A stretch of 42,699 nucleotides of DNA from Candidatus Woesearchaeota archaeon (GCA_016181275.1 JACOZQ010000029.1:696-43394), one strand, 5' to 3'; shown: positions 1,330 through 32,655, numbered from the stretch's first letter. Translations and numbers: made by a program. Notes: generated by a model from the letters alone, not told the origin.

Positions 1330-1411
1330 ACTAAACGGTTGTTATTTATAAAATATAAATCTTATGTTTAAGCCAACAAATCTTTAAATATAATCCTGTT
1401 ATTTTATTTTC

Positions 1412-2206
1412 ATGAAAGTTGAAATTAAAAGGGGATACACTATTTATTCAAAAGACAATAATGAATTTGTTTTCGTTGCTCCTCATTCAGGGCATGCAAT
1501 TGTCAATCCTGTTCATCGAGATGATCATTCTGAAACCATCGCTAGCTTATGTTGGAAAGAGCTTGGAGGAAAGCTAATAATAAGCGGGATAAGCAGAGAC
1601 AGGTTGTGGGGAATTGACTTTAACAGAAAAATACCCTCATTAAAAGAAGCTATGAAAAATTATGATTCATTTAACAATACAGAAGAAAGAGGGAGCTTGC
1701 TAGATTATGCAAAGAAATATGCATGGGTTGCAATCGATGAAAGTGATTACAATGAGAGGCTTAAGATTTACCAGAATTTTTGGAATGAAGTCGGCGACGG
1801 CAAATACATAATTCTGCTTCATAAAAATTTTCCAAAGATGAAAGCTGTTCCGAGCATAATGGATATTATAACTTTTTCTGATGCCGGTATTAAAAGAAAA
1901 ATAATTAAGAAAATTGTGAATGAGATGAACAGCAAATACTTTGACTTCTTTGAGAAAATCAAGACAGATTACAGGAATGCCATTCTTGCTGATACTAGAA
2001 GGTTTGTTCTAAACCTGATTAGAGTATATGAGCATTTCAATCCTAATGACATGAGCAAAGGGCATAAAAGCTCTATTGAAAAAGATCTTGACAAGATAAC
2101 AAAATATGCAGACAAGATTGCAATGAACAGTCTAAATTTTTGGCATCCCCATATGGCTGCTAAGATAATAAAGGATGTTGTTGAAAAGATTAAGAATGGG
2201 AATTGA
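1412..2206 (+). CDS. N-formylglutamate amidohydrolase-like (Zn-carboxypeptidase fold) protein, possibly internally deleted
   Basis: FVAPHSG, RDDHSE, ISRDRLWGIDFNR and ILLHKNF resemble the FGase motifs PHSG / D..T / SR..D.NR / xxH. Confidence 0.55.
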   Translation: MKVEIKRGYTIYSKDNNEFVFVAPHSGHAIVNPVHRDDHSETIASLCWKELGGKLIISGISRDRLWGIDFNRKIPSLKEAMKNYDSFNNTEERGSLLDYAKKYAWVAIDESDYNERLKIYQNFWNEVGDGKYIILLHKNFPKMKAVPSIMDIITFSDAGIKRKIIKKIVNEMNSKYFDFFEKIKTDYRNAILADTRRFVLNLIRVYEHFNPNDMSKGHKSSIEKDLDKITKYADKIAMNSLNFWHPHMAAKIIKDVVEKIKNGN

Positions 2207-2251: not shown

Positions 2252-2602
2252 ATGACAGAGAGATTTCATATTGAAGGAAAAGTAACCGGTTTATCCAGAA
2301 TCCCATCTCAAGTAAGATTTGATGGAAAACAAGAAGTAGATACTTTTGTTACTAAATTAGATTTAAGATGTCCTTTTGATAGTAAAGGTAGAATTACTCA
2401 AGTTATTTATCCTGATTCCACATCAATACGCCCTGGTGATTATATTTCTGCAGAAGGAGCAGAGGTTCAACTCGATGGAATGAATTACAGAGGATTAGCT
2501 GAAAAGGTTCGGGTTTTAGATAGAGGATTATTTAGAAATAAAAGATGGATTAAGCATGATTATGAATGTTCTTCGTATACTGTGAAGTCATGGCATTGGT
2601 AG
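2252..2602 (+). CDS. Hypothetical protein, possible OB-fold
   Basis: ATG 2252 lies about 25 bp after TTTATAAAA (2219-2227); beta-rich pattern IEGKVTG...IRPGDYISAEG. Confidence 0.5.
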   Translation: MTERFHIEGKVTGLSRIPSQVRFDGKQEVDTFVTKLDLRCPFDSKGRITQVIYPDSTSIRPGDYISAEGAEVQLDGMNYRGLAEKVRVLDRGLFRNKRWIKHDYECSSYTVKSWHW

Positions 2603-2666
2603 TAATTTTTTAACATCTTTTAAATCCTTAATTCCAATTCTTCCTTTGAATAATAAATCTAAATCT

Positions 2667-3497
2667 TTATGTTAAATTATAAGCTTCCTCATCAGAAAAA
2701 TAATTCTGCAGAAAATTAAAAGTTTCCCTGAATGAATTCTTCAAAGCCAAGTCTATTGCCAAAACCCTTCCAGCATAATTTTTCAAGTTTTTATTTCTCA
2801 AGAGATTATTCTTTTCTTCAATATAAACTGCCAGTCCCTCTTCTGTTTCTTCATAATTTGCCGTCCCATACTGAAAAATATTATATCTTTGCTTTTCCCC
2901 ATTTGAGCTACGAGTTGTATGAACTCCTATCTCATGAATTATCAATCTTTTTACATCTTCTTTTGAAAAACCTTCTCCCGATTTTACATACAATATTTTT
3001 TCCATCGTGACATTATCAACTCTCGAGCCGAGATTTTCCTTGACAATTGAGCTCCATCCTGGAAATTTTTTTAGTTCTCTATTTAGGATTTCTGTAACTT
3101 CTTCAGTTGATAAATTATTATCTTCTTTTTCTTCTTTTAATCTTAATAATCTCTTTGCATCTCTTACTAATTTTGGTGTTGTCTTTCCATAATACTTTAT
3201 TGAATTTTGAGTAAAGTTGGAGTATCCAACAGAATCTAAAATATCAATCCAAATTATTAATTTTTTAATTTTCTTTTTAAATAGAGAATCTTCTACTTGT
3301 TCATAAAATTTTTCAAGCATTTTTCTGTATCTATTAAGCTTTAGGTTTTTTTCTAAATACCTAAATTTTGGATTGTAATTGCTAGATGAGAAGAATTTCT
3401 TTTTTTCAGAATCCTGGTTCATCGGATTTATATATTTTAATTTCAGAATATCCTGGCAGATTTCAAGCATTTGCGAATCTATTTCATATAGGTTCAT
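2667..3497 (-). CDS. DUF1704 / MATCAP-like gluzincin metallocarboxypeptidase, C-terminally broken
   Basis: HEIGVH zinc motif, ETEEGLA, YAGRVLA. The ORF stops at AYNLT; a family-like tail (KDLDLLFKGRIGIKDL) follows in another frame at about 2610-2670. Confidence 0.8.
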   Translation of the reverse strand: MNLYEIDSQMLEICQDILKLKYINPMNQDSEKKKFFSSSNYNPKFRYLEKNLKLNRYRKMLEKFYEQVEDSLFKKKIKKLIIWIDILDSVGYSNFTQNSIKYYGKTTPKLVRDAKRLLRLKEEKEDNNLSTEEVTEILNRELKKFPGWSSIVKENLGSRVDNVTMEKILYVKSGEGFSKEDVKRLIIHEIGVHTTRSSNGEKQRYNIFQYGTANYEETEEGLAVYIEEKNNLLRNKNLKNYAGRVLAIDLALKNSFRETFNFLQNYFSDEEAYNLT

Positions 3498-3550
3498 TTT
3501 ACGATAGTTTTATTAAAGTTTTTTCTTTTTATTCTTGTTGGTGATGAAAG

Positions 3551-3995: not shown

Positions 3996-5930
3996 ATGCT
4001 TTTTAAAAGATTGAAAAAAAAGAGATGGATTTTAATTTCTGCAATAATTATTCTAGTATTATTAATTATTTTTTTAGGAGCTAAATTTTACTTACTTTTT
4101 AATTTTCTAATTGGTAATGATACTGTCATAAAAATTGATTCCGGAGATGAATATTTATTTTTGAAAAATCGGGAATCAAGAGATGTTGATTTTGAAGCGA
4201 AGGTTACTACAAATCCTTTTTGCTCTGCTGCATGCTCAATAGAATTCCTAGACCTAAATGACATGAGCTTGATTGATTATGATGAGTTTTCATTAAAGCC
4301 AGGAAGCCCTTTTAAAAAATCATATCAAATTTCTGCTGATGGAGATGGAAGAGGAAAAGATTTTTATAGATTTAAAGTTGAATGTACGAGCAGTGGCGGA
4401 TTTTTATGCCATAGTGACAGAGAAAAAACTACAAGGAATTTGCTAATTGTGGCTGAGCATGACTTAAATGAAATTGAGCAGGAAAATAAAAAAGCATTTG
4501 AGGAATTGTCATTAGAGATATTGCAAGATATAAATGAAATGGAAAAAAATATTTTGATATTTAATGATGCTACATCAAAACTAAACAGAACAGTTATAGT
4601 AGATATTGATGATGCATTTGAAATTGACAACTTTTATGATGGGCTGATGAATTTAAGTTCTGATGAAAATTACTACTTAAAACTTCCTGAGCTCAATGAA
4701 CTTAATGAAGGATTTTTAGATACAAAAAAAGAATTTGAAGTTGCTAATAATAAAATATTAGACTCTGTAATTACATATAATTCTTTGATTGATGCATTAT
4801 TATTTTCCAAATCTTTCCTTGATAATTTAAGCAATCTCAGCCTAGAATTAGATACTGCTGAAAATACTAAATTATTTTTTGATGAATTTAATAACATTGC
4901 AGCTAATTTTGATCAGAGAGATTACCTAGAAAATAAATCATTTTTGGTAAATAACTTCCTTGATAGATTGCATAATTTTGATCTTGAAGAAGCTGATAAT
5001 GGAACAATTGTTGATGGAAAAGCAAATGAAATAAATTTTGAGAAAATTGAATTGCTAAATATTTCTGCAGATGAATCAAAAATTGATTTTCCAGAAATAA
5101 AATTGAAATGCATATTAAATAATATTACAGGCAATTGTGGCGAGGATGGAAATAATTCAGTTGTATTTGTGCATGGACATGCTGTCACAAAAGATGCGCC
5201 TCTCGAATTCAGCTTGGAAGGTTTTGGAAAATTACAAAATAAGCTAGAAGATGAGGGATATATTAATGCCGGCACTATTACATTGTATACCAAAAAAGAA
5301 GTTCCTGTTGGCATTTGGAACGTTCATGCTCCATTCTCAATTAGAGCAAGTTATTATTTTGATTTATTTGATGAGCCTGAAAACTATAAAGTTGTTTTAA
5401 CTAAGAGCGAGAATATAGATACATACGCTGTCAGAATGAAAGAAGTTTTTGACAATATCAGATATAGAACTGGAAAAGATAAAATTGATGTTGTTGCATT
5501 CAGCATGGGGGGGCTTGTAATTAGAAGGCATGTCCAATTGTTTGGCAGCGATGGTTTTGGAAAGATAATTTTACTTGGCACACCAAATAAAGGAATTGTT
5601 GGAGATGTTGCTACATTATGCCCTATTGTCGGCGGAGAAAAAAGGGAATGTGATGATATGCTTTCTGGAAGTTTGTTTATGCAAAAACTTAACAGAGATA
5701 AAATTCCTAAAAACCTGCACAATATATACGGAACTGGCTGTGAAATGACTGGTGGAAGTGGAGATGGAATTGTATTAGAAGATAATGCAAAGCTTGATGG
5801 CGCTAAAAATTACATTGTTAATGGGACCTGCATGGGGAGATTTACTCCTTTGCATCTGGACTTGCTTGATTTAGATGGGTATCCTGAAGTATATAAAATT
5901 ATAAAGGAAATTTTGAGTTCACAGTCGTAG
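3996..5930 (+). CDS. Membrane-anchored protein with C-terminal alpha/beta-hydrolase (lipase/PGAP1-like) domain
   Basis: Basic N-terminus and TM helix, Cys-containing beta region, acidic helical stalk, then VFVHGH, nucleophile elbow AFSMGG, GTPNKG, GDGIV and a C-terminal His (PLHLDL). Confidence 0.8.
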   Translation: MLFKRLKKKRWILISAIIILVLLIIFLGAKFYLLFNFLIGNDTVIKIDSGDEYLFLKNRESRDVDFEAKVTTNPFCSAACSIEFLDLNDMSLIDYDEFSLKPGSPFKKSYQISADGDGRGKDFYRFKVECTSSGGFLCHSDREKTTRNLLIVAEHDLNEIEQENKKAFEELSLEILQDINEMEKNILIFNDATSKLNRTVIVDIDDAFEIDNFYDGLMNLSSDENYYLKLPELNELNEGFLDTKKEFEVANNKILDSVITYNSLIDALLFSKSFLDNLSNLSLELDTAENTKLFFDEFNNIAANFDQRDYLENKSFLVNNFLDRLHNFDLEEADNGTIVDGKANEINFEKIELLNISADESKIDFPEIKLKCILNNITGNCGEDGNNSVVFVHGHAVTKDAPLEFSLEGFGKLQNKLEDEGYINAGTITLYTKKEVPVGIWNVHAPFSIRASYYFDLFDEPENYKVVLTKSENIDTYAVRMKEVFDNIRYRTGKDKIDVVAFSMGGLVIRRHVQLFGSDGFGKIILLGTPNKGIVGDVATLCPIVGGEKRECDDMLSGSLFMQKLNRDKIPKNLHNIYGTGCEMTGGSGDGIVLEDNAKLDGAKNYIVNGTCMGRFTPLHLDLLDLDGYPEVYKIIKEILSSQS

Positions 5931-24130: not shown

Positions 24131-24805
24131 CTATTTACTATATGCTTTAACAACTCTTGATAAATCCTTTATAAGATATTTTACTTCCTTAATACCATAT
24201 TCTTTTGCTGTTTCAGCTATAGATTCAAGCCTTGGCACCAAAGATAATAATAGGCCTTCTTCTCCATATACTAATTTACACAATTCCCTATTTTTATTAG
24301 TTTTATTGATTGATACTGCAACAAGCGGCCTGAAAATTGGCCTCATTCCCATAACAAAAATATATGGTGATATTAATTCTTCTGAAGAAGATTTAGCTAT
24401 CTCATCTAAATTTCTTTTTATACCAAACAATTCTGGAATTGGCAAATCTTCTAACTTAAAACTTGATTCTTGTCCATAATCTTTCATATCTGTTGTTTCT
24501 AAATATCCTCCTGCAATGGTTTTTAAATAATAAGACCATGTTAATGCATCAATGCTTTCTCTTAATGAAGGACTATAAATTTTAGATTCACCAGGTGCAA
24601 TATCAATGACAAAAGGTCCTAATGTTTTTAAGATTGAATTAATATTGCTTGATTGTCTCGGGAACAACTTTATAAGAAACGATCCTAAAATTTTTTGAGC
24701 TTCAACGAATAATTCATAACTCCTGTCTTCAGAAGAGATTGTTCTTTTTTCTGCGCTATTTTCTTTTTTGTCTTCTATTTTTCCTAAAGCGTCGTCGATT
24801 GGCAT
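24131..24805 (-). CDS. MPIDDALG-tagged protein D (224 aa), paralog of protein C
   Basis: Starts MPIDDALGKIE; shares PYIxVM...RPL and A..YGIKEV with 24808-25512. Confidence 0.8.
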   Translation of the reverse strand: MPIDDALGKIEDKKENSAEKRTISSEDRSYELFVEAQKILGSFLIKLFPRQSSNINSILKTLGPFVIDIAPGESKIYSPSLRESIDALTWSYYLKTIAGGYLETTDMKDYGQESSFKLEDLPIPELFGIKRNLDEIAKSSSEELISPYIFVMGMRPIFRPLVAVSINKTNKNRELCKLVYGEEGLLLSLVPRLESIAETAKEYGIKEVKYLIKDLSRVVKAYSK

Positions 24806-24807
24806 TT

Positions 24808-25512
24808 TTAAACCCACATCTGCTTGTATAAATTAATTGCATGATCAAAACTATCCATTATTGGCATAACTTCTTTTATGCCGTATTTCTCTGCTACCGA
24901 CAGATAATTTTTAGTTAAGGGTCTTTTTAATTGCAGGATCTCTTCGAAATAATCGCTTTTTTGCTCCAGTTGTTTTTGGACAGCCAATACAGATAGAGGC
25001 CTACACTTAAAATCTATACTCATGACCATTATATAAGGATCTAAAATAGCCAGATCTTCTTCTTTATCCGGGTCGCATAGATATTCTGATAATATTTTAA
25101 TTCCAGTAATATATTTGCTTGCTTCTTTAATCCTATCAACCTTAACAAATTGCGCCAGGTCAGTGTTGAAAATATGATCGCCATACATTAATCTGACAAT
25201 GCCTTCTAATACGGAATTTTCAGCTGGAGCAAATTTAATTTCTAGCTTCCTATTATTTGCTGGTCCGGCAGGAAAGATTTTATAAGACATAAATCCAAAT
25301 CTTTTAATTGCTTCTCCTGTTATGGCATGAATTTGATATCCTCCTGATTGATTTCCTAAGATTCCATTGAAGAATCTAAGCAAGATATCTCCAATTACTA
25401 AATTTGCATCCTCGAAAATCTGCCCTGGCTTGGTTTCTTGATTAACCTTGCTTGGTTCTCTGGCTGGCTCTTCTCTAACTTCTATATTCCCCAAAGCGTC
25501 GTCGATTGGCAT
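24808..25512 (-). CDS. MPIDDALG-tagged protein C (234 aa)
   Basis: Starts MPIDDALGNIE; its ATG overlaps the MoxR stop (TAATG). Confidence 0.8.
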   Translation of the reverse strand: MPIDDALGNIEVREEPAREPSKVNQETKPGQIFEDANLVIGDILLRFFNGILGNQSGGYQIHAITGEAIKRFGFMSYKIFPAGPANNRKLEIKFAPAENSVLEGIVRLMYGDHIFNTDLAQFVKVDRIKEASKYITGIKILSEYLCDPDKEEDLAILDPYIMVMSIDFKCRPLSVLAVQKQLEQKSDYFEEILQLKRPLTKNYLSVAEKYGIKEVMPIMDSFDHAINLYKQMWV

Positions 25513-27029
25513 TATATACTCTCTACTCCTCTTGCTTTTTCCATTGCTTTTGACAGAAGATATTTCTGAGCATGCGGCTTTAACTCAGTCGATAATGCTA
25601 ATCTTCCTTGAATGTCTTCAAGCTTTTTTCCCTTCATTTCTTCAGATTCAATCTCACTATATAAATCCCTGAATTCCTGCCTGTCAGCTTCTTCAACCAA
25701 AGGCTTGAAGTGATATTGCACTACCAAATCCTTGTCAATGTCATTAATCTTCGAATCTCCAGGGGCTATTTCTCCACGCAATACCATCGGCACTTCTTTC
25801 AAAGCATCTTTAACAGTGCTGTAATCTCCTGTTGCTTTAGCTACAACTGCTTCCAGAAATTTCATCTTCTGACCACTATAAGGATCTTTTGATATAACTG
25901 TTTCGCTTGGCTGGATTCTATGATACATAAGATAAGGCGCGATTGTCTGTAGTGTTTCTAATTGCACTTCTGGCTTTGCGACATCGACTTCTACTTTATT
26001 TCCTTTTTTATCTTCAACAACAGCTTTATATGAAAATGCATTTAAGAACCATGCATAAGCCTTTCCCCATCTTTGGAAATCCAAAAATGCCCTGCCGCTC
26101 AATCCATCCTGAGTCATCTTGCAAATGCTAACTGGTGTATCAAACCCGCAGCCCTTGCATCTTTCTCCTACAGGTATTTCATTATGCGACTTGTCAAAAT
26201 CATCTCCTCTTGCACAAGTTGAAACTGCTTGAGTGAGATAAATTGCATATATTAGAGCATCTGAGCTCATCTTAACATCTTCAGAAATTAATTTTCTTGC
26301 TTCAAGCAGCTCCTCCAGTGTCATCACCGGCTTTACAACTAATTCTTTTAATTTATCATCAGGCCTTTCTGCAAGCAGATATTGATCTGAAGCAGATGGC
26401 TGCTGCGGAGCTGGAACACAAAAGCTAAACCTGTCAACAAACGGCCTGCTCAATGGATATGTTCCTGAATCATTTGGATTCTCTGTTGCAAATGCCATGA
26501 AATCCGATATTTGATAAACCTGATCAATAAATTCAACCCTTCCTCTGTTTAAAATTTCAAACAAAGCATTCTGAGCTGGAGGCGGAAATCTATTTACTTC
26601 ATCCATGATCTTAACATAAGATGTCACAAAATTTCTCCATTTAACTTCTTCCTCTCCATGAACTATTAATTTTCCCAGTTTCAATGTTGCCAGTAATGTA
26701 TTAACATTCTGATCATCATTGCCACGAATCATTGCACTAGTTATTTCTTTTTCAGGAATTCCAGTGAGCATGTGAGCTACTTTTTCCACCATCGTGGTTT
26801 TACTTCCACCATGCCCTCCTCTATATATCACTCCGCTTTTTGGAACTAGTCCATTAACAACAGCCGAGCTCGTCATTGGATCAAGATATGTCTTCCTGAC
26901 TTTTCCATCAGGTCCTTTATAAGTAAATTCCATCCTGCCTCTGCTATTATAATAAACTCCTTGCACCGGGATTTGGGTATAAACTGTTCTTACCTTTTCC
27001 CTTAAAGTATTATGTTTTTGCTTGTTCAT
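25512..27029 (-). CDS. MoxR-family AAA+ ATPase with Cys-rich insertion
   Basis: Walker A GGHGGSKTT, Walker B IMDEVNR, AQNALFEIL, ATENPNDSGTYPLSRPFVDRF, GLSGRA, APYLMYHRI; GGAGG SD upstream. Confidence 0.9.
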   Translation of the reverse strand: MNKQKHNTLREKVRTVYTQIPVQGVYYNSRGRMEFTYKGPDGKVRKTYLDPMTSSAVVNGLVPKSGVIYRGGHGGSKTTMVEKVAHMLTGIPEKEITSAMIRGNDDQNVNTLLATLKLGKLIVHGEEEVKWRNFVTSYVKIMDEVNRFPPPAQNALFEILNRGRVEFIDQVYQISDFMAFATENPNDSGTYPLSRPFVDRFSFCVPAPQQPSASDQYLLAERPDDKLKELVVKPVMTLEELLEARKLISEDVKMSSDALIYAIYLTQAVSTCARGDDFDKSHNEIPVGERCKGCGFDTPVSICKMTQDGLSGRAFLDFQRWGKAYAWFLNAFSYKAVVEDKKGNKVEVDVAKPEVQLETLQTIAPYLMYHRIQPSETVISKDPYSGQKMKFLEAVVAKATGDYSTVKDALKEVPMVLRGEIAPGDSKINDIDKDLVVQYHFKPLVEEADRQEFRDLYSEIESEEMKGKKLEDIQGRLALSTELKPHAQKYLLSKAMEKARGVESI

Positions 27030-27030
27030 T

Positions 27031-27304
27031 TTAATAATCCTCCAATTTCATTCTTTCATAAAATATTACCCACCTTTCTTTTTTCAATGATGCTATTTCC
27101 TGCCTGTTTTGATTGAGCTCTTTTTCATACTCTCTTCTTTCTTCACAGACATTTTTCCTATTCTTTCCATTGCAGAAATTGTGAAATCTGTTAGAGCATC
27201 AAGCCTTTGATTAATTTCTTCAGTTCTCATTTCTATTTTCCTTATTTCTTCTGAACCAGATTTTCTCCTGAATTAAAATTTCCTAAAGCATTATCTATTA
27301 TCAT
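27031..27304 (-). CDS. Tagged protein B (about 91 aa, coiled-coil), interrupted by two single-base frameshifts
   Basis: Starts MIIDNALGNF. Adding one A at each of two A-runs (about 27261-27264 and 27152-27156) gives one ORF ending ...ERMKLEDY* 1 bp before the MoxR ATG. Confidence 0.6.
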
Positions 27305-27306
27305 TT

Positions 27307-28071
27307 TTATTCCCGAAAAAACTTAAATAATTTATTTCTAAATCTTCCTGGAGAGATATCCTTAAGACCCTTTGGACCATGATAATATATATGATACTTT
27401 ATTCTTGTTTTGCCTATAGCATATCTTTCTAATTGATACAATCTCTGTATAACTTGCTTAGCTACAAATGAACCAGCACCTAAATTCTTATTTATTAATT
27501 CAAAATTTGAAACTAAAGCTCTTTCTAAAAGGATAACGCCCAATAAATCTGTTGTGTTATATAATTCAACTAATGTCTCATTTGCAATTTTTACTCTTGT
27601 TAGCAATTGCTGATTACTTGGAGCATTACTTGGCAGTGTCTTGGCTTCTTCATTTATCTTGGCTAATGGATCCTCAATTATTCCTAACAGTTCTTTAGAT
27701 AGTGCATCTGGAATCTTAACACCAGCAGCAGACCTATCACCTGTTAATTCTGGTGTTAAAACTCCTTCAAAATATTTATTCCATCTATCCAATTCAGAAT
27801 TTATACTATCAAGACCACCTCTTAATCTTAAATAAAAAGTTGCATATGGCCAAAAACTATCTAATACAACCTTGAGATCTGAAGTATCTATCTTATATCT
27901 TCGATCATCTTCCAAAAATGCTCTTGCTTTTAAAAACCTGTCATGCAAGTCTCCAATTTTTTCAGCTGGAAGTAAATTAGGAGGTTCTATAATCCTTGTT
28001 CTTTCTGCTTGTTTCTCTTCTTTCATTTCTTTTGAAAATTCTATATTCCCTAAAGCGTCATCAATCGGCAT
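27307..28071 (-). CDS. MPIDDALG-tagged protein A (254 aa)
   Basis: Starts MPIDDALGNIE at 28071, overlapping the end of the vWA gene, with GGAGG upstream. Confidence 0.8.
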   Translation of the reverse strand: MPIDDALGNIEFSKEMKEEKQAERTRIIEPPNLLPAEKIGDLHDRFLKARAFLEDDRRYKIDTSDLKVVLDSFWPYATFYLRLRGGLDSINSELDRWNKYFEGVLTPELTGDRSAAGVKIPDALSKELLGIIEDPLAKINEEAKTLPSNAPSNQQLLTRVKIANETLVELYNTTDLLGVILLERALVSNFELINKNLGAGSFVAKQVIQRLYQLERYAIGKTRIKYHIYYHGPKGLKDISPGRFRNKLFKFFRE

Positions 28072-30121
28072 CTTCTTCCTCCTGAGCTGAGTCATATCTT
28101 CTTTTTACCTGGCCGATAACAATCCCTACTAAGTCTTCTATCTTTTTGGCTTTATGAACAACTGCTCCTCTTTCTTCAATACATTCTGCAAATTTCCTGC
28201 CTGTTGATGGATTTAATTTTACAACAAAAACATCATCATATTCTGAGATGCCTTTTGCAAATGCATCACATGCTTCTTGCCAATTACTAATATCACAGTC
28301 AGACATAAGGCATGTTTGCAGAGGGTTGGTTGTTTTCTTGATTATTTCTTCTACTTCTTTAACAGGAACTACTGTTCCTCCGCTGTAATTTGTCATAACT
28401 GCCATTTCAACTTTGTTTATATCATCTGTATAATCCTGCACAGTTATATTATCTTCGCCTGAAAAATTTATTGCTGCAACTTTCCCGCCATTTTCAATTG
28501 CATACAAGGCAGCTCCCTCAGCAGCCAATATTGCCTTATCAAAATCTCCTCTTGCTTCTGGATTATCTGCCCATTTATCCCAGCCCATACTTCCAGATGA
28601 GTCTATGGAAATAAATAAGTCAGGAATTCTTTTTAATCTTCCAACGCCTTCAGATACTTCTGCTTTTCTTTTATAAGTAGTCAGCCCAGGAATTGGTTTT
28701 CCTGAAGCCATTATTGAAGGGATTATTTCCAATCCTCCTTTTCCTATTATTGGATCTCCAACATTCCATGCTGTCTGATATGAGGGTGCTTTCTCTGCTC
28801 TTTGATTATCAGCTTCTTTCATAGATATCAAAAGCTCTTTTGCCCTTGCCCTGTACATTAATCTCAATGCATCATCTGGCTCTAATTTATGCAATACTCC
28901 CATTGTGCCTGCAAATTTTCCAGGTGATCTCTCATTTCTATGATAAACCTCATCTAATGCGTTTTCATCTATATTCGCAGCTTCATCATCATCGCTGTTT
29001 TCATGATTATCATTTTTATTATTCTTGCCACTTTTTCCTTTTCCATCTTTTCCTTTATCCCTGGAAACTTTTTCTCCGCCTTCTTGCTCTCCTAGCGGGC
29101 TTTTTGTAGGCTCACCCATTTGTGATTTGACGTCATCAGGAATTGGCATTCCATCATTCTGCTCGCCGCCTTGCTGTTGATTTTTTCCCTGTCCGCTTTT
29201 TCCCTGTCCGTTCCTGCCATATCTGCTATTACCTCTTTGGTTTTTTGTATCTTGAGCAGTTTGCTTTATTATTGGTTCAAGGATTGTGGCGAATTTTCTT
29301 ATTTTAGCTTCCCATGTAGTTCTGTCTTTCCAATCACTTCCTAATATATCAACTAATCCTTGAGCTACTTTTTCAGCATTATTGTCTTTTTTCTGGACAT
29401 GGTCTTTTAACCCTAAATCTTCATTCCATAATTTTTCATAAGCAGATACTAATGTCCGCCATAATAATGACGGCGCTTGCTGAGTTTTTCTTGCGTCTTT
29501 AACTGTTTCTTTCTGTCTCCATAAAGTTAAATCTCCGAAATCATCTCTTCCGTATTTTTCTTTAGCTAGGAAAGTATCTCCAATTAAATCACCCATGATG
29601 TTCAAAACTAAATATGCATAATCTGAAGCAAGTTTTTTATTCTGCACAATATTTTGATCTTTAAATCCTTTTAATGCTGAATCTACTAAAATTGCTTCTG
29701 TTACTCTATCCCCAGGAACCTTTGTAAAATGAGTTGTTTCATGCTGGAATATACTCCTAGAATATTGCCTATTTTCTACTCCTGGAGATGCTCTTTCTGC
29801 TGCTGCAACATACTTATCCAATGAAGCTGTGTACTCTAGATTATTTGGAACATCATCGCTGTTGAAATACGTTGTCCATGTCTTAGGCACTATATAAAAT
29901 CCTCTTGGAACAGCTACTCTAACATTTTTAGGCAGCTTATTTTTCTCCCTCGCTGTTTCAGCATTTACTATTTTAGGATCCGGCAAGTTAGAAACAAACA
30001 AGTCCCAGCATGACTGCCTGAATGACTGCAAGATTTCTTTTTCTGTCAAACCTGGCTGCGGGGTTACTTTTGATTGATTTCCTAAATCTTTGTTTCCTGT
30101 TAATTTATCTAAAAGACCCAT
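28061..30121 (-). CDS. HExxH metallopeptidase-like + vWA (MIDAS) domain protein
   Basis: QHETTH...LNIMGDLIGD, a long G/Q/N/K/D-rich linker, then ISIDSSGSM, AINFS, SGGT, LMSD. Confidence 0.88.
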   Translation of the reverse strand: MGLLDKLTGNKDLGNQSKVTPQPGLTEKEILQSFRQSCWDLFVSNLPDPKIVNAETAREKNKLPKNVRVAVPRGFYIVPKTWTTYFNSDDVPNNLEYTASLDKYVAAAERASPGVENRQYSRSIFQHETTHFTKVPGDRVTEAILVDSALKGFKDQNIVQNKKLASDYAYLVLNIMGDLIGDTFLAKEKYGRDDFGDLTLWRQKETVKDARKTQQAPSLLWRTLVSAYEKLWNEDLGLKDHVQKKDNNAEKVAQGLVDILGSDWKDRTTWEAKIRKFATILEPIIKQTAQDTKNQRGNSRYGRNGQGKSGQGKNQQQGGEQNDGMPIPDDVKSQMGEPTKSPLGEQEGGEKVSRDKGKDGKGKSGKNNKNDNHENSDDDEAANIDENALDEVYHRNERSPGKFAGTMGVLHKLEPDDALRLMYRARAKELLISMKEADNQRAEKAPSYQTAWNVGDPIIGKGGLEIIPSIMASGKPIPGLTTYKRKAEVSEGVGRLKRIPDLFISIDSSGSMGWDKWADNPEARGDFDKAILAAEGAALYAIENGGKVAAINFSGEDNITVQDYTDDINKVEMAVMTNYSGGTVVPVKEVEEIIKKTTNPLQTCLMSDCDISNWQEACDAFAKGISEYDDVFVVKLNPSTGRKFAECIEERGAVVHKAKKIEDLVGIVIGQVKRRYDSAQEEEDAD

Positions 30122-30253
30122 TTATTTCTCCAAAAATTTTGATATAGCATATTCCACAATATGGCTTCTATTACGAAACATTCCTTTCTTTAATTCTCTC
30201 TCTATTTTCTCTACAATATTTCTCTCTACGCTTACGCTGATTTTATCTTTCAT
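30122..30253 (-). CDS. Ribbon-helix-helix (CopG-like) regulator, 43 aa
   Basis: Not in the ORF track: MKDKISVSVERNIVEKIERELKKGMFRNRSHIVEYAISKFLEK*. Alternating beta strand plus FRNRSHIV turn; the stop abuts the vWA ATG. Confidence 0.85.
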   Translation of the reverse strand: MKDKISVSVERNIVEKIERELKKGMFRNRSHIVEYAISKFLEK

Positions 30254-30354: not shown

Positions 30355-30373
30355 TTTTTCTATGATTATGATT

Positions 30374-30769
30374 ATGAACAAAGACAATGAAGTTCCAAGA
30401 AGTGTAGAGAGATTCATCAAAAGAGCTGAAGAAAGAATTGAATCCCTTAGAGAGAAATACGACGTCGAGAAAAACTGCAACTTTGATGACATTACAGGAA
30501 CATTATTCAGCCAGGTTCAAGGGTTTACACAAATTTTTAAATCCCGAGATGGAAATTCATGGAGAGACAAAAGAGATAGCATTGTTGCTCCTGCAGTTGC
30601 ATTGAATGGATATCTAAACGTGCTTGAAAGAAATCCTGAATTTGCAAGGGCAGAATTTGACAATAGGATTGGACCTTATTTTAGAGACATTAGGGATTTG
30701 TGGAATGAAGGAAAAGTTCAGCATTATCAATTAAAGTATGCACAAGAAACTTCAGAGAGATTAAAATGA
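30374..30769 (+). CDS. Hypothetical protein
   Basis: ORF 30362-30769; ATG 30374 fits the promoter spacing; ATGA overlap with the next gene. Confidence 0.6.
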   Translation: MNKDNEVPRSVERFIKRAEERIESLREKYDVEKNCNFDDITGTLFSQVQGFTQIFKSRDGNSWRDKRDSIVAPAVALNGYLNVLERNPEFARAEFDNRIGPYFRDIRDLWNEGKVQHYQLKYAQETSERLK

Positions 30770-31077
30770 AACAATATATACAAAAAATAAGAGAATTTTT
30801 AAGTGATTATAATAAAGTTAATGCTGAAATATTTGCAGAGAGTATTAGACAAAGAGCAAAAGGTTTAGAAAAAGCAGTAGATGATAATTGGTTTATTCCT
30901 TTTCTTAAAGGAGGAGAATTAACAGGAGTAGTTCTTACGGGTGTGGGTTATTTAACAGATAGTCCTTCTTTAACCGGATTTGGAATCGGAATTGCTTCAG
31001 TGGCTGGAATAGAGCATGTTGGTATAAGATATGCTTTACAAAGAAGAGATCAATTAAGAGAAGGTGAAAGAAAATGA
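30766..31077 (+). CDS. Hypothetical protein with Gly-rich hydrophobic hairpin
   Basis: GGELTGVVLTGVGY...GFGIGIASVAG; ATGA overlaps at both ends. Confidence 0.6.
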   Translation: MKQYIQKIREFLSDYNKVNAEIFAESIRQRAKGLEKAVDDNWFIPFLKGGELTGVVLTGVGYLTDSPSLTGFGIGIASVAGIEHVGIRYALQRRDQLREGERK

Positions 31078-31178
31078 AATGTTTAAAATGTGAATATGAA
31101 TGGACACCAAGAGTTGAAAATCCAAAAGAGTGCCCCGAATGCAAAATAAGATTGAGCAAATTTAATGGAGGAAATTAA
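31074..31178 (+). CDS. 34-aa zinc-ribbon microprotein
   Basis: Not in the ORF track: MKCLKCEYEWTPRVENPKECPECKIRLSKFNGGN*; AGGTGA SD and ATGA coupling. Confidence 0.75.
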   Translation: MKCLKCEYEWTPRVENPKECPECKIRLSKFNGGN

Positions 31179-31179
31179 A

Positions 31180-31875
31180 ATGCCAGAAGAAAATCAAAAT
31201 CAAAGAGAAATTCCAACTTTGGAAACCATTGTTGGAGAGATGAATAGAATAGCTAATTTGTCAAATATCTATAATCAATATGACTATGCCGAAAAGCCGA
31301 GCGAAAAAGGAGGATTATTGAGAGCAGCTGCAACAGTATTGAGCAGAGCAAGAGATGGAGCTGAGTTCAATGCTGTTTATAATCAGTTGGAAGGAGAAGG
31401 TTTTTCTGATAAAATAAAATCTTCAAGAGATGAAAGAATTAGGCTGATTAGCGAAACTTATGAAGCAAGAAAAGAAGAACTCTTGAATGAAATAGTTGAC
31501 AAATTAAACAAGGATTTGAGGGAAGCTAAGAATCTTAGAGAAGCTACGCAGAAAATAGGATATGCCTTTGCTCCATTAGTTTCAAGAATGACTCAAGAAG
31601 ATGCAAACAAGCAAATGACCCAATATTTAGAAAATAAGGCAATGATACCTGTTACTAAACCAGTTTATGCTGACAGGGATTCTTTGTATGGATTGAGAGT
31701 TGCTAGATACATCAGTGAGTTCATCAATGAATCTGGAGAAGGAGAAGAAAAATCTTACAGCATTAACAGAGAAAAATTAGCTGAGATTGTAGAAGATCCG
31801 GTTATTGGCTCAACACTATACTCAGCTGAAAAGCCAAGGGAAAGAGAGCAGCAAAATGAGCAGCAGTATGAATAA
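31180..31875 (+). CDS. Hypothetical acidic helical protein
   Basis: GGAGG upstream of ATG 31180; T-run after the stop. Confidence 0.65.
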   Translation: MPEENQNQREIPTLETIVGEMNRIANLSNIYNQYDYAEKPSEKGGLLRAAATVLSRARDGAEFNAVYNQLEGEGFSDKIKSSRDERIRLISETYEARKEELLNEIVDKLNKDLREAKNLREATQKIGYAFAPLVSRMTQEDANKQMTQYLENKAMIPVTKPVYADRDSLYGLRVARYISEFINESGEGEEKSYSINREKLAEIVEDPVIGSTLYSAEKPREREQQNEQQYE

Positions 31876-31920
31876 GCTGCTTAGCTTTCTTTTTTAAGGA
31901 AAAGATAAACGGAGAGATAA

Positions 31921-32655
31921 ATGCTAGATGAAATAAAAAATTCAAAGCCTGCAAGAGCTGTTAAAGCATTGGATCGGGAAGTATTGAGACAGTATAGCAA
32001 AGTAGCTAAGAGATGGGAAGATAAAGGAAGAGATATTTATCATTTAAGCTCTGCTGTTGGAATATCTTCATTAATTTTAATAGGCATTACTGGGAATAGA
32101 TTTTTTGATATTCTTGGGATATCAAGCGAAAATTTTAAATTCATGTATTTATTTCCAGCTTGTTGGGATAATGTAGATAATTTGCATGGATTGAGACGTA
32201 AAAGAAATGAAGAATTATCTGATTCTTCTACCAAAGCAATTTATCCTGCTGAAAGATTTTATACTACAGTAAATCGAGCAATAAGATTGCCCTGTTTTTT
32301 ATCTGGTATTGGAATGGTTGGTAAAACAGTATATGATGCTTATAATTATCTTCTCAATGGAGAACCTATTGCATTAGGTGAAGATTTTATTCTAGCTCAA
32401 ACTGGATTGGGCTTTATTGGGACTGCATCTTCAATGTATCTAAAAGATAGAGATCCAAAATTATTGCAAAAAGATCCTTTGTGGAAAAGAGCTTATGAGT
32501 CTGCTAAAAGCAAATATCATGAAACAAAAGAAAAAATCGGTGAGCTAGTTCCTAAACCAATTTTAGAACCTGCTCGAACAGTTCATATTATGTTTGGAGC
32601 GGGGATAAACAACCGGAATATTATCGGAAAGATATGCCGATATATGCTCCATTAG
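31921..32655 (+). CDS. Hypothetical membrane protein (C-terminus possibly chimeric)
   Basis: Several hydrophobic segments; the last ~25 codons overlap a better coding frame of the next gene. Confidence 0.55.
   Translation: MLDEIKNSKPARAVKALDREVLRQYSKVAKRWEDKGRDIYHLSSAVGISSLILIGITGNRFFDILGISSENFKFMYLFPACWDNVDNLHGLRRKRNEELSDSSTKAIYPAERFYTTVNRAIRLPCFLSGIGMVGKTVYDAYNYLLNGEPIALGEDFILAQTGLGFIGTASSMYLKDRDPKLLQKDPLWKRAYESAKSKYHETKEKIGELVPKPILEPARTVHIMFGAGINNRNIIGKICRYMLH

Follow-up and report, generated by a model that had tools for sequence, protein, structure and literature searches.

A short N-terminal peptide shared by unrelated proteins beside a MoxR-vWA gene pair in Woesearchaeota, a candidate docking motif

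The described gene pairs NorQ-NorD, CbbQ-CbbO and RavA-ViaA set a MoxR-type AAA+ ATPase beside an adaptor made of an N-terminal domain, a disordered linker and a VWA domain whose MIDAS (the metal ion-dependent adhesion site) reads DxSxS-T-D; each pair is devoted to a single enzyme complex, and none is known to have a client tag. According to two papers (PMC9976466, PMC13036017), the MIDAS of such pairs is considered to take an acidic residue of the target as sixth ligand, and NorD consists of an N-terminal domain, a linker that is disordered and a VWA domain at the C-terminus. Client choice by MoxR-vWA machines is little understood, and no linear recognition motif is known to have been described for the known pairs. 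We analysed a window of 42,699 nucleotides (nt; the whole stretch of DNA under study) from a Candidatus Woesearchaeota archaeon, whose assembly (G000) has 942,196 bases (0.94 Mb) in 50 contigs with ~33% G+C; the window DNA is also present in groundwater metagenome runs, and no RNA run was listed with it. It contains an operon that resembles the known pairs in placing a MoxR gene beside an adaptor gene of the same architecture. Unlike them, the system includes 3-34 proteins of unrelated families with a common N-terminal peptide of about ten residues (hereafter the tag), its adaptor carries an HExxH motif, and its MoxR protein has 505 amino acids (aa) with a four-cysteine cluster and a long C-terminal extension. 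To judge from the sequences, the core is of the MoxR-VWA kind and an N-terminal tag on its putative clients appears not to have been described before in the literature searched. The search, which covered MoxR in Woesearchaeota and the tag strings, found no published description of the tag or the clade, though archaeal systems may be listed in the source data of one paper (PMC7159879). In public records, every component is unnamed or called "hypothetical".

In the operon, proteins A and C start with MPIDDALGNIE, protein D starts with MPIDDALGKIE, and a short open reading frame (ORF) at 27304, called 'B', starts with MIIDNALGNF. When the whole assembly is translated in six frames, the string D[DNE]ALG turns up four times, in every case inside the operon and directly at an ATG. 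The sequence-only reading had pointed to these N-termini and had argued from synonymous differences that selection acts on the peptide; both points are upheld. The tag DNA of A and C is identical at 29 of 33 nt, with 4 of 11 codons differing, all synonymously and none non-synonymously, and that of C and D at 30 of 33 nt, with two synonymous differences and one non-synonymous. Codons for identical residues differ in 388 of 897 cases in tags (0.43) and in 738 of 1556 cases in the bodies (0.47). Because the synonymous sites of the tags have diverged as much as those of the bodies, this comparison shows that the peptide itself is under selection, and its conservation is not the product of recent gene conversion.

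The proteins behind the tag are diverse. Over their full length, C and D align as paralogs (25% identity, E 2e-13; the best relatives of D reach E 1e-23), and the match of A with C or D is confined to the tag. Clustering of 45 tagged proteins by BLAST, with the first 15 residues removed, gave families c0 (18 members), c1 (10), c2 (5), c3 (5) and c4 (2), plus one pair and three singles. The family of C and D is c0, which is also the accessory family in most related loci; c2 unites A with four tagged genes of the locus of another genome, G183 (E 2e-15 to 3e-6), and c1 has no member in the window. With the tag stripped, no homology between families is found by BLAST, and hhalign probabilities stay at or below 1.6%. 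By these measures the tagged bodies are shown to fall into at least five apparently unrelated families, and the earlier proposal that A is unrelated to C and D beyond the tag stands in the sense that they are not detectable paralogs. Conservation peaks in the first 10 alignment columns in c0 (0.53), c2 (0.67) and c3 (0.79), and in c1 (0.47) these columns rank within the top three windows; the following 10 columns score 0.19-0.27, among the lowest, in agreement with the unconserved linker that had been seen behind it. The tag might be a mere relic of shared ancestry, retained by fast-diverging paralogs of one fold and with no addressing role. The tagged proteins of related loci are indeed alike in size (~220-300 aa), but the hhalign values give no sign of kinship between families, and the tag follows the locus, whereas the conservation of a relic would follow the family, so that we hold this explanation to be highly improbable. 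Tag identity is 0.62 between proteins of the same locus and different families (n=108) and 0.44 between those of different loci and the same family (n=101), because of which the tag can be said to track the system and not the body family.

No function can be read from the bodies. A, C, D and families c0, c1 and c3 gave nothing usable in Pfam (for A, no family at E up to 1), NCBIfam, profiles of the Protein Data Bank (PDB), PADLOC or PHROGs; the best matches are at chance level (4bwr, for instance, at E 6.7e-4 across 60 residues), PADLOC gave only two weak partial matches (D to PtuA, 6.4e-4, and the vWA protein to CARF, 4.5e-3), and PHROGs gave none for nine proteins. A word-indexed protein search with C and A retrieved only themselves, a weak result as shared 5-mers are required. 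An exhaustive c0 profile search retrieved 129 representatives among 1.84 billion proteins, with N-termini in a few motif classes, and the cluster members bear only the name "hypothetical protein". Distant c0 representatives (P0061-P0129) have other conserved N-termini, for example ..IVDGKPP.., MAILLDG.M, ..LIQGE.. and TIEPQG, with an acidic low-complexity linker behind them here too. Family c3 shows the motifs YIILEG..HGTYSYPDLLVS, RQFVDFLKLLKSG, GEWLD and LGVR.A; it is expanded and scattered in the G183 genome, occurs also in G173 and G158 under other tag dialects, and matches no known family.

Over 34 tagged proteins, the motif reads [PT]-I-[DE]-D-x-L-x-x-[LI]-[EP]. In all 34 tags the first hydrophobic residue is followed by an acid, and the hydrophobic residues are spaced i, i+4, i+7, an amphipathic pattern. 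The second residue is a small one (P, T, G, S or A) in all but one of the tags (33 of 34), and a small residue in this position permits removal of the initiator methionine. The amphipathic spacing would also suit an element of homotypic or heterotypic assembly, whose N-terminal helices bundle into a mixed complex or scaffold that the MoxR-vWA machine only chaperones. This would fit the single dialect and the many copies per locus, and in the ternary systems of Kaur et al. 2020 (PMC7159879) effector-associated domains (EADs) pair the same domain on neighbouring proteins. Yet ten residues are very short for a stable bundle, several loci have a single tagged gene (L027/L039, L028, L036, L037, L038), and the invariant acid and the invariant MIDAS would be left unexplained, which makes assembly a quite unlikely explanation of the tag.

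The adaptor consists of an N-terminal domain with the HExxH motif, a low-complexity linker (residues ~290-400) and a C-terminal vWA domain. In an alignment of 11 homologs, the MIDAS residues D507, S509, S511, T583 and D608 are invariant (11 of 11), in agreement with the vWA domain named in the earlier note. The window adaptor itself has no Pfam match at E up to 1, to a vWA or to a peptidase domain; 5 of the 11 homologs match VWA_2 (best 2.7e-4) and one matches VWA (2.6e-5). The adaptor profile hits no PDB chain at E below 0.2, and this comparison found no homology of the N-terminal domain to NorD, CbbO or ViaA. Among 5.8 billion proteins, the homologs of the adaptor group into 19 clusters, all of them unnamed or "hypothetical" and none with a Pfam domain. 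The linker (residues 290-400) is 86% polar or glycine and aligns poorly. Within it stands PIPDDVKSQM, a conserved, acidic and loosely tag-like stretch, and it is speculation that this could be an internal pseudo-ligand for the site of the tag.

The HExxH motif brings in a different role for the tag, which might be a pro-peptide or leader that the HExxH domain recognises. Proteins with the tag would be inactive or tethered until clipped in the linker, be it to activate, release or degrade them, with MoxR unfolding or presenting them, which is compatible with docking. H127 and H131 are found in all 11 homologs and E128 in 10 of 11, the tag forms the very N-terminus, with a flexible, unconserved linker behind it, and one genome (G509, below) pairs the adaptor with tagged genes and no cognate MoxR. 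Against it, neither Pfam nor NCBIfam assigns the adaptor to a peptidase family at E up to 1, the remaining homolog reads HGVGH, so that catalysis is not universal, and no conserved cleavage-site motif stands behind the tag; we consider a leader role unlikely.

The ATPase is a genuine member of the MoxR class by its sequence, with an AAA+ core that matches AAA_3 (1.5e-9, 38.3 bits, cut-off 27) and AAA_5 (1.1e-7, 32.4 bits, cut-off 22) and has PDB 2r44 as its nearest solved relative (E 1.2e-12). Ordinary MoxR proteins have ~300-350 aa and lack the ~230-aa C-terminal extension of this one. Four cysteines (C272, C291, C294, C303) are invariant in three orthologs and may form a zinc site.

The combination recurs in other Woesearchaeota, as the sequence-only reading would predict, and is not confined to the host genome. 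Searches with MoxR and the adaptor found orthologous loci in 3 of 41 close genomes, on 7 genome contigs and on 11 metagenome contigs. A full-length adaptor is encoded in 7 of 240 genomes of the order (E ≤ 1.5e-71), 12 of 401 genomes sampled from the phylum gave a match at E ≤ 1e-30, and the distribution of the system is patchy. Beside the orthologous MoxR and/or adaptor genes of related loci, 2-17 genes share one locus-specific N-terminal dialect (Table 1). In the largest set, that of G183, two tagged genes precede the adaptor, ten separate it from MoxR and five follow MoxR. In the distant systems L027/L039, L028, L036, L037 and L038, one c0-type gene starting with M..W[DE]..[IV] lies between MoxR and adaptor, and three other distant systems carry sets of two to four genes with a shared N-terminus of their own.

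The proposed link between tag and machine is borne out by co-occurrence but is only partial, as many tags are dispersed. In the host genome, the three matches to the MPID pattern all lie in the operon. In G183 (1 Mb), there are 34 matches to MPIDxx[L/I..] and none to the reversed-pattern control; 17 lie on the contig of MoxR and adaptor and 17 over nine other contigs, one dispersed match being due to chance. At least 14 of the dispersed tags stand at the start of ORFs of 149-274 aa, many of c3 type and others of further families. Its congener G182, at 96% completeness, lacks adaptor, cognate MoxR and c0 alike and gives 0 tag matches. G180 has 13 matches over two patterns, and its congener G179 has 10 tag matches, the machine not having been found in this metagenome-assembled genome. 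This is an assembly gap, because the G179 contig C58 ends 200 base pairs (bp) before the adaptor gene in metagenome contig L034, to which it is 99.8% identical over 2648 bases, and L034 continues with adaptor, c1, MoxR, c1, c0 and c0. Dispersed tagged genes pair as orthologs between G179 and G180 (~160, 205 and 239 aa, the last coiled-coil-like); therefore, tagged genes outside the main locus are conserved and not debris. Across the order, exact MPIDDA[LF] occurs 11 times in 4 of 240 genomes, with 0 in the control.

Such dispersal raises the question whether the tag addresses proteins elsewhere, to an export route or the membrane, with an indirect link to MoxR-vWA such as cargo preparation. 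Besides the spread of 17 of 34 G183 tags and most G180 tags among unrelated genes, one report describes a MoxR as necessary for Tat (twin-arginine translocation) export of one M. tuberculosis protein (PMC4810496). The tag, however, is acidic and shows no core of hydrophobic residues, membrane segments are absent from A, C and D (19-residue hydropathy peaks at 1.25-1.39), none of the other genes is linked to it consistently, and it is absent from G182, the congener without the machine. An address other than the machine is improbable on these grounds.

We favour a reading in which the tag acts as a short linear motif for docking on the vWA/HExxH-MoxR machine, and we consider it about as likely to be right as wrong. 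A charged, unconserved linker ties the tag to an unrelated body, and the tag would bring interchangeable soluble client or partner proteins of ~25 kDa to one receptor on the adaptor-MoxR machine, probably the vWA/HExxH protein rather than MoxR. The ATPase would then remodel, assemble or release the tagged proteins, which the HExxH domain may clip. In the most specific version, the conserved Asp/Glu of the tag would complete the MIDAS metal coordination as sixth ligand, the hydrophobic face of its helix would pack beside it and MoxR would transmit force through the VWA domain. Drawn by analogy with NorQD and with Rea1-MIDAS, this version is possible but doubtful.

Several observations weigh against docking on this machine. 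The contrast of 34 tag matches to 0 between G183 and G182 comes from a single pair, and genomes within a genus are kin. Half of the G183 tags and most of the G180 tags lie far from the machine, so that the linkage is partial, and a receptor other than the vWA/HExxH-MoxR machine is possible. One of the exact MPIDDA[LF] matches, in G138, is a tag-like ORF of 19 codons in a genome where no machine was found. In G509, which is 100% complete and belongs to another order, the adaptor and eight tagged genes occur without a cognate MoxR, the best MoxR match being to the AAA core only, on another contig (E 2.2e-21); with adaptor and tagged genes present there, this genome points to the adaptor as the tag's closer partner. 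Conversely, G008 shows MoxR and a tagged gene and the vWA gene was not found, in a genome that is 78% complete and on a contig that is cut. A and C/D may share a fold past the reach of sequence methods. The helical hydrophobic moment of the tag (2.00 against 1.09 ± 0.53 in shuffles) is a weak test, as 5.4% of shuffles reach the observed mean. Finally, the G173 dialect (MKINPNLL...) has Asn at the aligned acid position, so that the acid is not universal in distant systems, for which the MIDAS version is weakened.

On a wider scale, the tag could be a proteome-wide address code of some DPANN archaea, by which dozens of unrelated proteins (~33 in one 1 Mb genome) would be routed to a dedicated vWA/zincin/AAA+ machine, with lineage dialects co-evolving with the receptor. 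The machine would sort, process and deliver them, for example for the building or loading of a host-contact structure. This extension seems unlikely to us; if true, it would amount to a new protein-sorting pathway. In either case, one machine with 3 to ~34 unrelated proteins under one short tag, in several lineage dialects, offers a natural test set. Should the tag dock on the MIDAS or the HExxH domain, it would be a defined, transferable ligand for the study of force transmission by MoxR-vWA machines. It would also give access to a set of orphan proteins, which account for a noticeable share of certain very small DPANN genomes, and it could serve as a portable recruitment tag.

Parallels to other known systems go only part of the way. 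Encapsulation peptides of bacterial microcompartments and cargo-loading peptides of encapsulins likewise put a short amphipathic terminal helix and a poorly conserved linker on unrelated proteins of one locus. By contrast, no shell or encapsulin gene was seen in the related loci, and the proposed receptor here is a vWA/AAA+ machine. The MoxR/vWA tail-development pair of the Acidianus two-tailed virus acts on a structural partner protein, and no tag is known to have been described there. It is archaeal, like the system studied here, but viral (PMC7159879); our pattern scan found no vWA relative on viral contigs. In Rea1/Midasin (PMC6624252), a single MIDAS of an AAA+ machine uses a conserved acid to recognise one and the same N-terminal module in different proteins, Rea1-MIDAS binding a glutamate in the ubiquitin-like (UBL) domains of two factors, Ytm1 and Rsa4. 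There, the module is a folded domain of the ubiquitin-like kind, found on two eukaryotic factors of ribosome assembly, whereas ours is a ~10-residue linear motif on many proteins, and the likeness is one of analogy only. The VMAP/iSTAND systems (Kaur et al. 2020, PMC7159879) also combine a MoxR and vWA core with a third component, variable partners, identical N-terminal adaptor modules that link neighbouring proteins, a diversified repertoire and a patchy distribution. They differ in being enriched in multicellular bacteria and in sharing domains, whereas here the host is a DPANN archaeon with a small genome and the shared element a motif of ten residues. A, C, D and 17 c0 members have no Pfam match to VMAP-C, iSTAND or EAD domains (on the assumption that this Pfam set includes VMAP models), and all 11 adaptor homologs end ~20-30 residues past the vWA domain, with no C-terminal effector fusion. 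On both counts the operon does not appear to be a VMAP/iSTAND ternary conflict system, and the kinship with such systems suggested in the earlier note is not supported.

The operon comprises six intact genes and a polymorphic mini-ORF or remnant. Its order (RHH, adaptor, A, 'B', MoxR, C, D) and most of its junctions, which are overlaps or gaps of 0-2 nt, are as first described, but the seventh gene is not: 'B' has only 20 codons before stops in its frame, and a 212 bp gap separates it from MoxR. In one of four DNA runs (X4), a contig of depth 19.1 has one additional C behind 27249, which turns 'B' into a 70-codon ORF ending at 27092/3, and runs X1-X3 read as the window does. These four DNA runs belong to one study, and three of them may be the source of the window DNA. 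Against the c1 profile, this lysine- and glutamate-rich sequence matches weakly (E 0.001-0.006 against 1-3 sequences). 'B' is thus best described not as the full accessory gene once proposed but as a polymorphic mini-ORF or remnant. The RHH protein, listed earlier among the operon genes, is probably a local regulator not kept in related loci: three relatives (L024, L026, L034) carry in its place a mini-gene of ~35-61 aa with a zinc-ribbon-like CxxC...CPRC pattern, L072 has nothing there, and L109 and L021 hold unrelated ORFs. A promoter and terminator scan gave the same counts as shuffled sequences and is uninformative for an archaeal host, the consensus being bacterial.

Table 1. Features of the operon, their sequence motifs, and tagged or neighbouring genes of related loci
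Feature	Location	Position	Strand	Remarks
RHH protein, 43 aa	window	30122..30253	-	RHH_1, E 1e-4, 22.6 bits (cut-off 20.5)
HExxH+vWA adaptor, 686 aa	window	28061..30121	-	HExxH; MIDAS invariant in alignment of 11 homologs
Adaptor HETTH, residues 127-131	window	29729-29743	-	
Adaptor linker motif PIPDDVKSQM, residues 326-335	window	29117..29146	-	P.P[DE]DV..Q[MLC]-like in 9/11 homologs
Adaptor MIDAS DSSGS, residues 507-511	window	28589-28603	-	
Adaptor MIDAS T583	window	28373-28375	-	
Adaptor MIDAS D608	window	28298-28300	-	
Tagged protein A, 254 aa, family c2	window	27307..28071	-	tag MPIDDALGNIE, nt 28039-28071
'B', 20-codon ORF	window	27242..27304	-	degenerate tag MIIDNALGNF; stops further on in frame
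MoxR-type AAA+ ATPase, 505 aa	window	25512..27029	-	AAA_3 and AAA_5 matches
MoxR Walker A GGHGGSKT	window	26796-26819	-	
MoxR Walker B IMDE	window	26598-26609	-	
MoxR four-cysteine cluster	window	~26121-26216	-	
Tagged protein C, 234 aa, family c0	window	24808..25512	-	tag MPIDDALGNIE, nt 25480-25512
Tagged protein D, 224 aa, family c0	window	24131..24805	-	tag MPIDDALGKIE, nt 24773-24805
Four orphan ORFs, 135, 103, 236 and 244 aa	window	30362-32655	+	divergent from operon
CxxC...CPRC mini-gene	L024	~1370-1815		just upstream of adaptor gene
CxxC...CPRC mini-gene	L026	~4840-5290		just upstream of adaptor gene
CxxC...CPRC mini-gene	L034	~2400-2850		just upstream of adaptor gene
6 tagged genes	L024			MTIEDSL.KI
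17 tagged genes	G183 locus (L072/L031)			MPID..L..LE
5 tagged genes	L026/G180			MGT[IFL]D[DE]ALE.LP or MPIDSALEQLP
4 tagged genes	L034			
8 tagged genes	G509 (another order)			MAIDDAI
4 genes, shared N-terminus	G238 (distant)			MK[VIL]P..F.P.K.L[DE]
3 genes, shared N-terminus	G173 (distant)			MKINPNLLKLAEQTYDPDLK
2 genes, shared N-terminus	G522 (distant)			M[SG]LVP...SPEERKRI.[ED]ELL
Dispersed tagged genes, G179/G180	L088 (G180:C5)	2902-3513, 4067-4435		
Dispersed tagged genes, G179/G180	L092, L094, L095, L097, L098, L099			
c3 genes, G183	L080-L087			
c3 genes, G183	L072	12242-13700		
c3 genes, G183	L077	6956-8604		
c3 genes, G183	L076	2483-3328		
FtsZ-like gene, G032	L021	11988-13061	-	right after system
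FtsZ-like gene	L037	1031-2140	+	~4 kb upstream of system

Among the surroundings of these loci, the four divergent orphan ORFs next to the operon have no Pfam match. A distinct, conserved six-gene operon is present in G498, G299, G394 and G473 (L110, L111, L112 and L113), with a distant MoxR of 513-558 aa, an adaptor of 538-575 aa and partners of 380-910 aa that have no shared N-terminus. An FtsZ-like gene, called by eye from its N-terminal GGGG.N motif, neighbours the system in two loci, which may be a coincidence.

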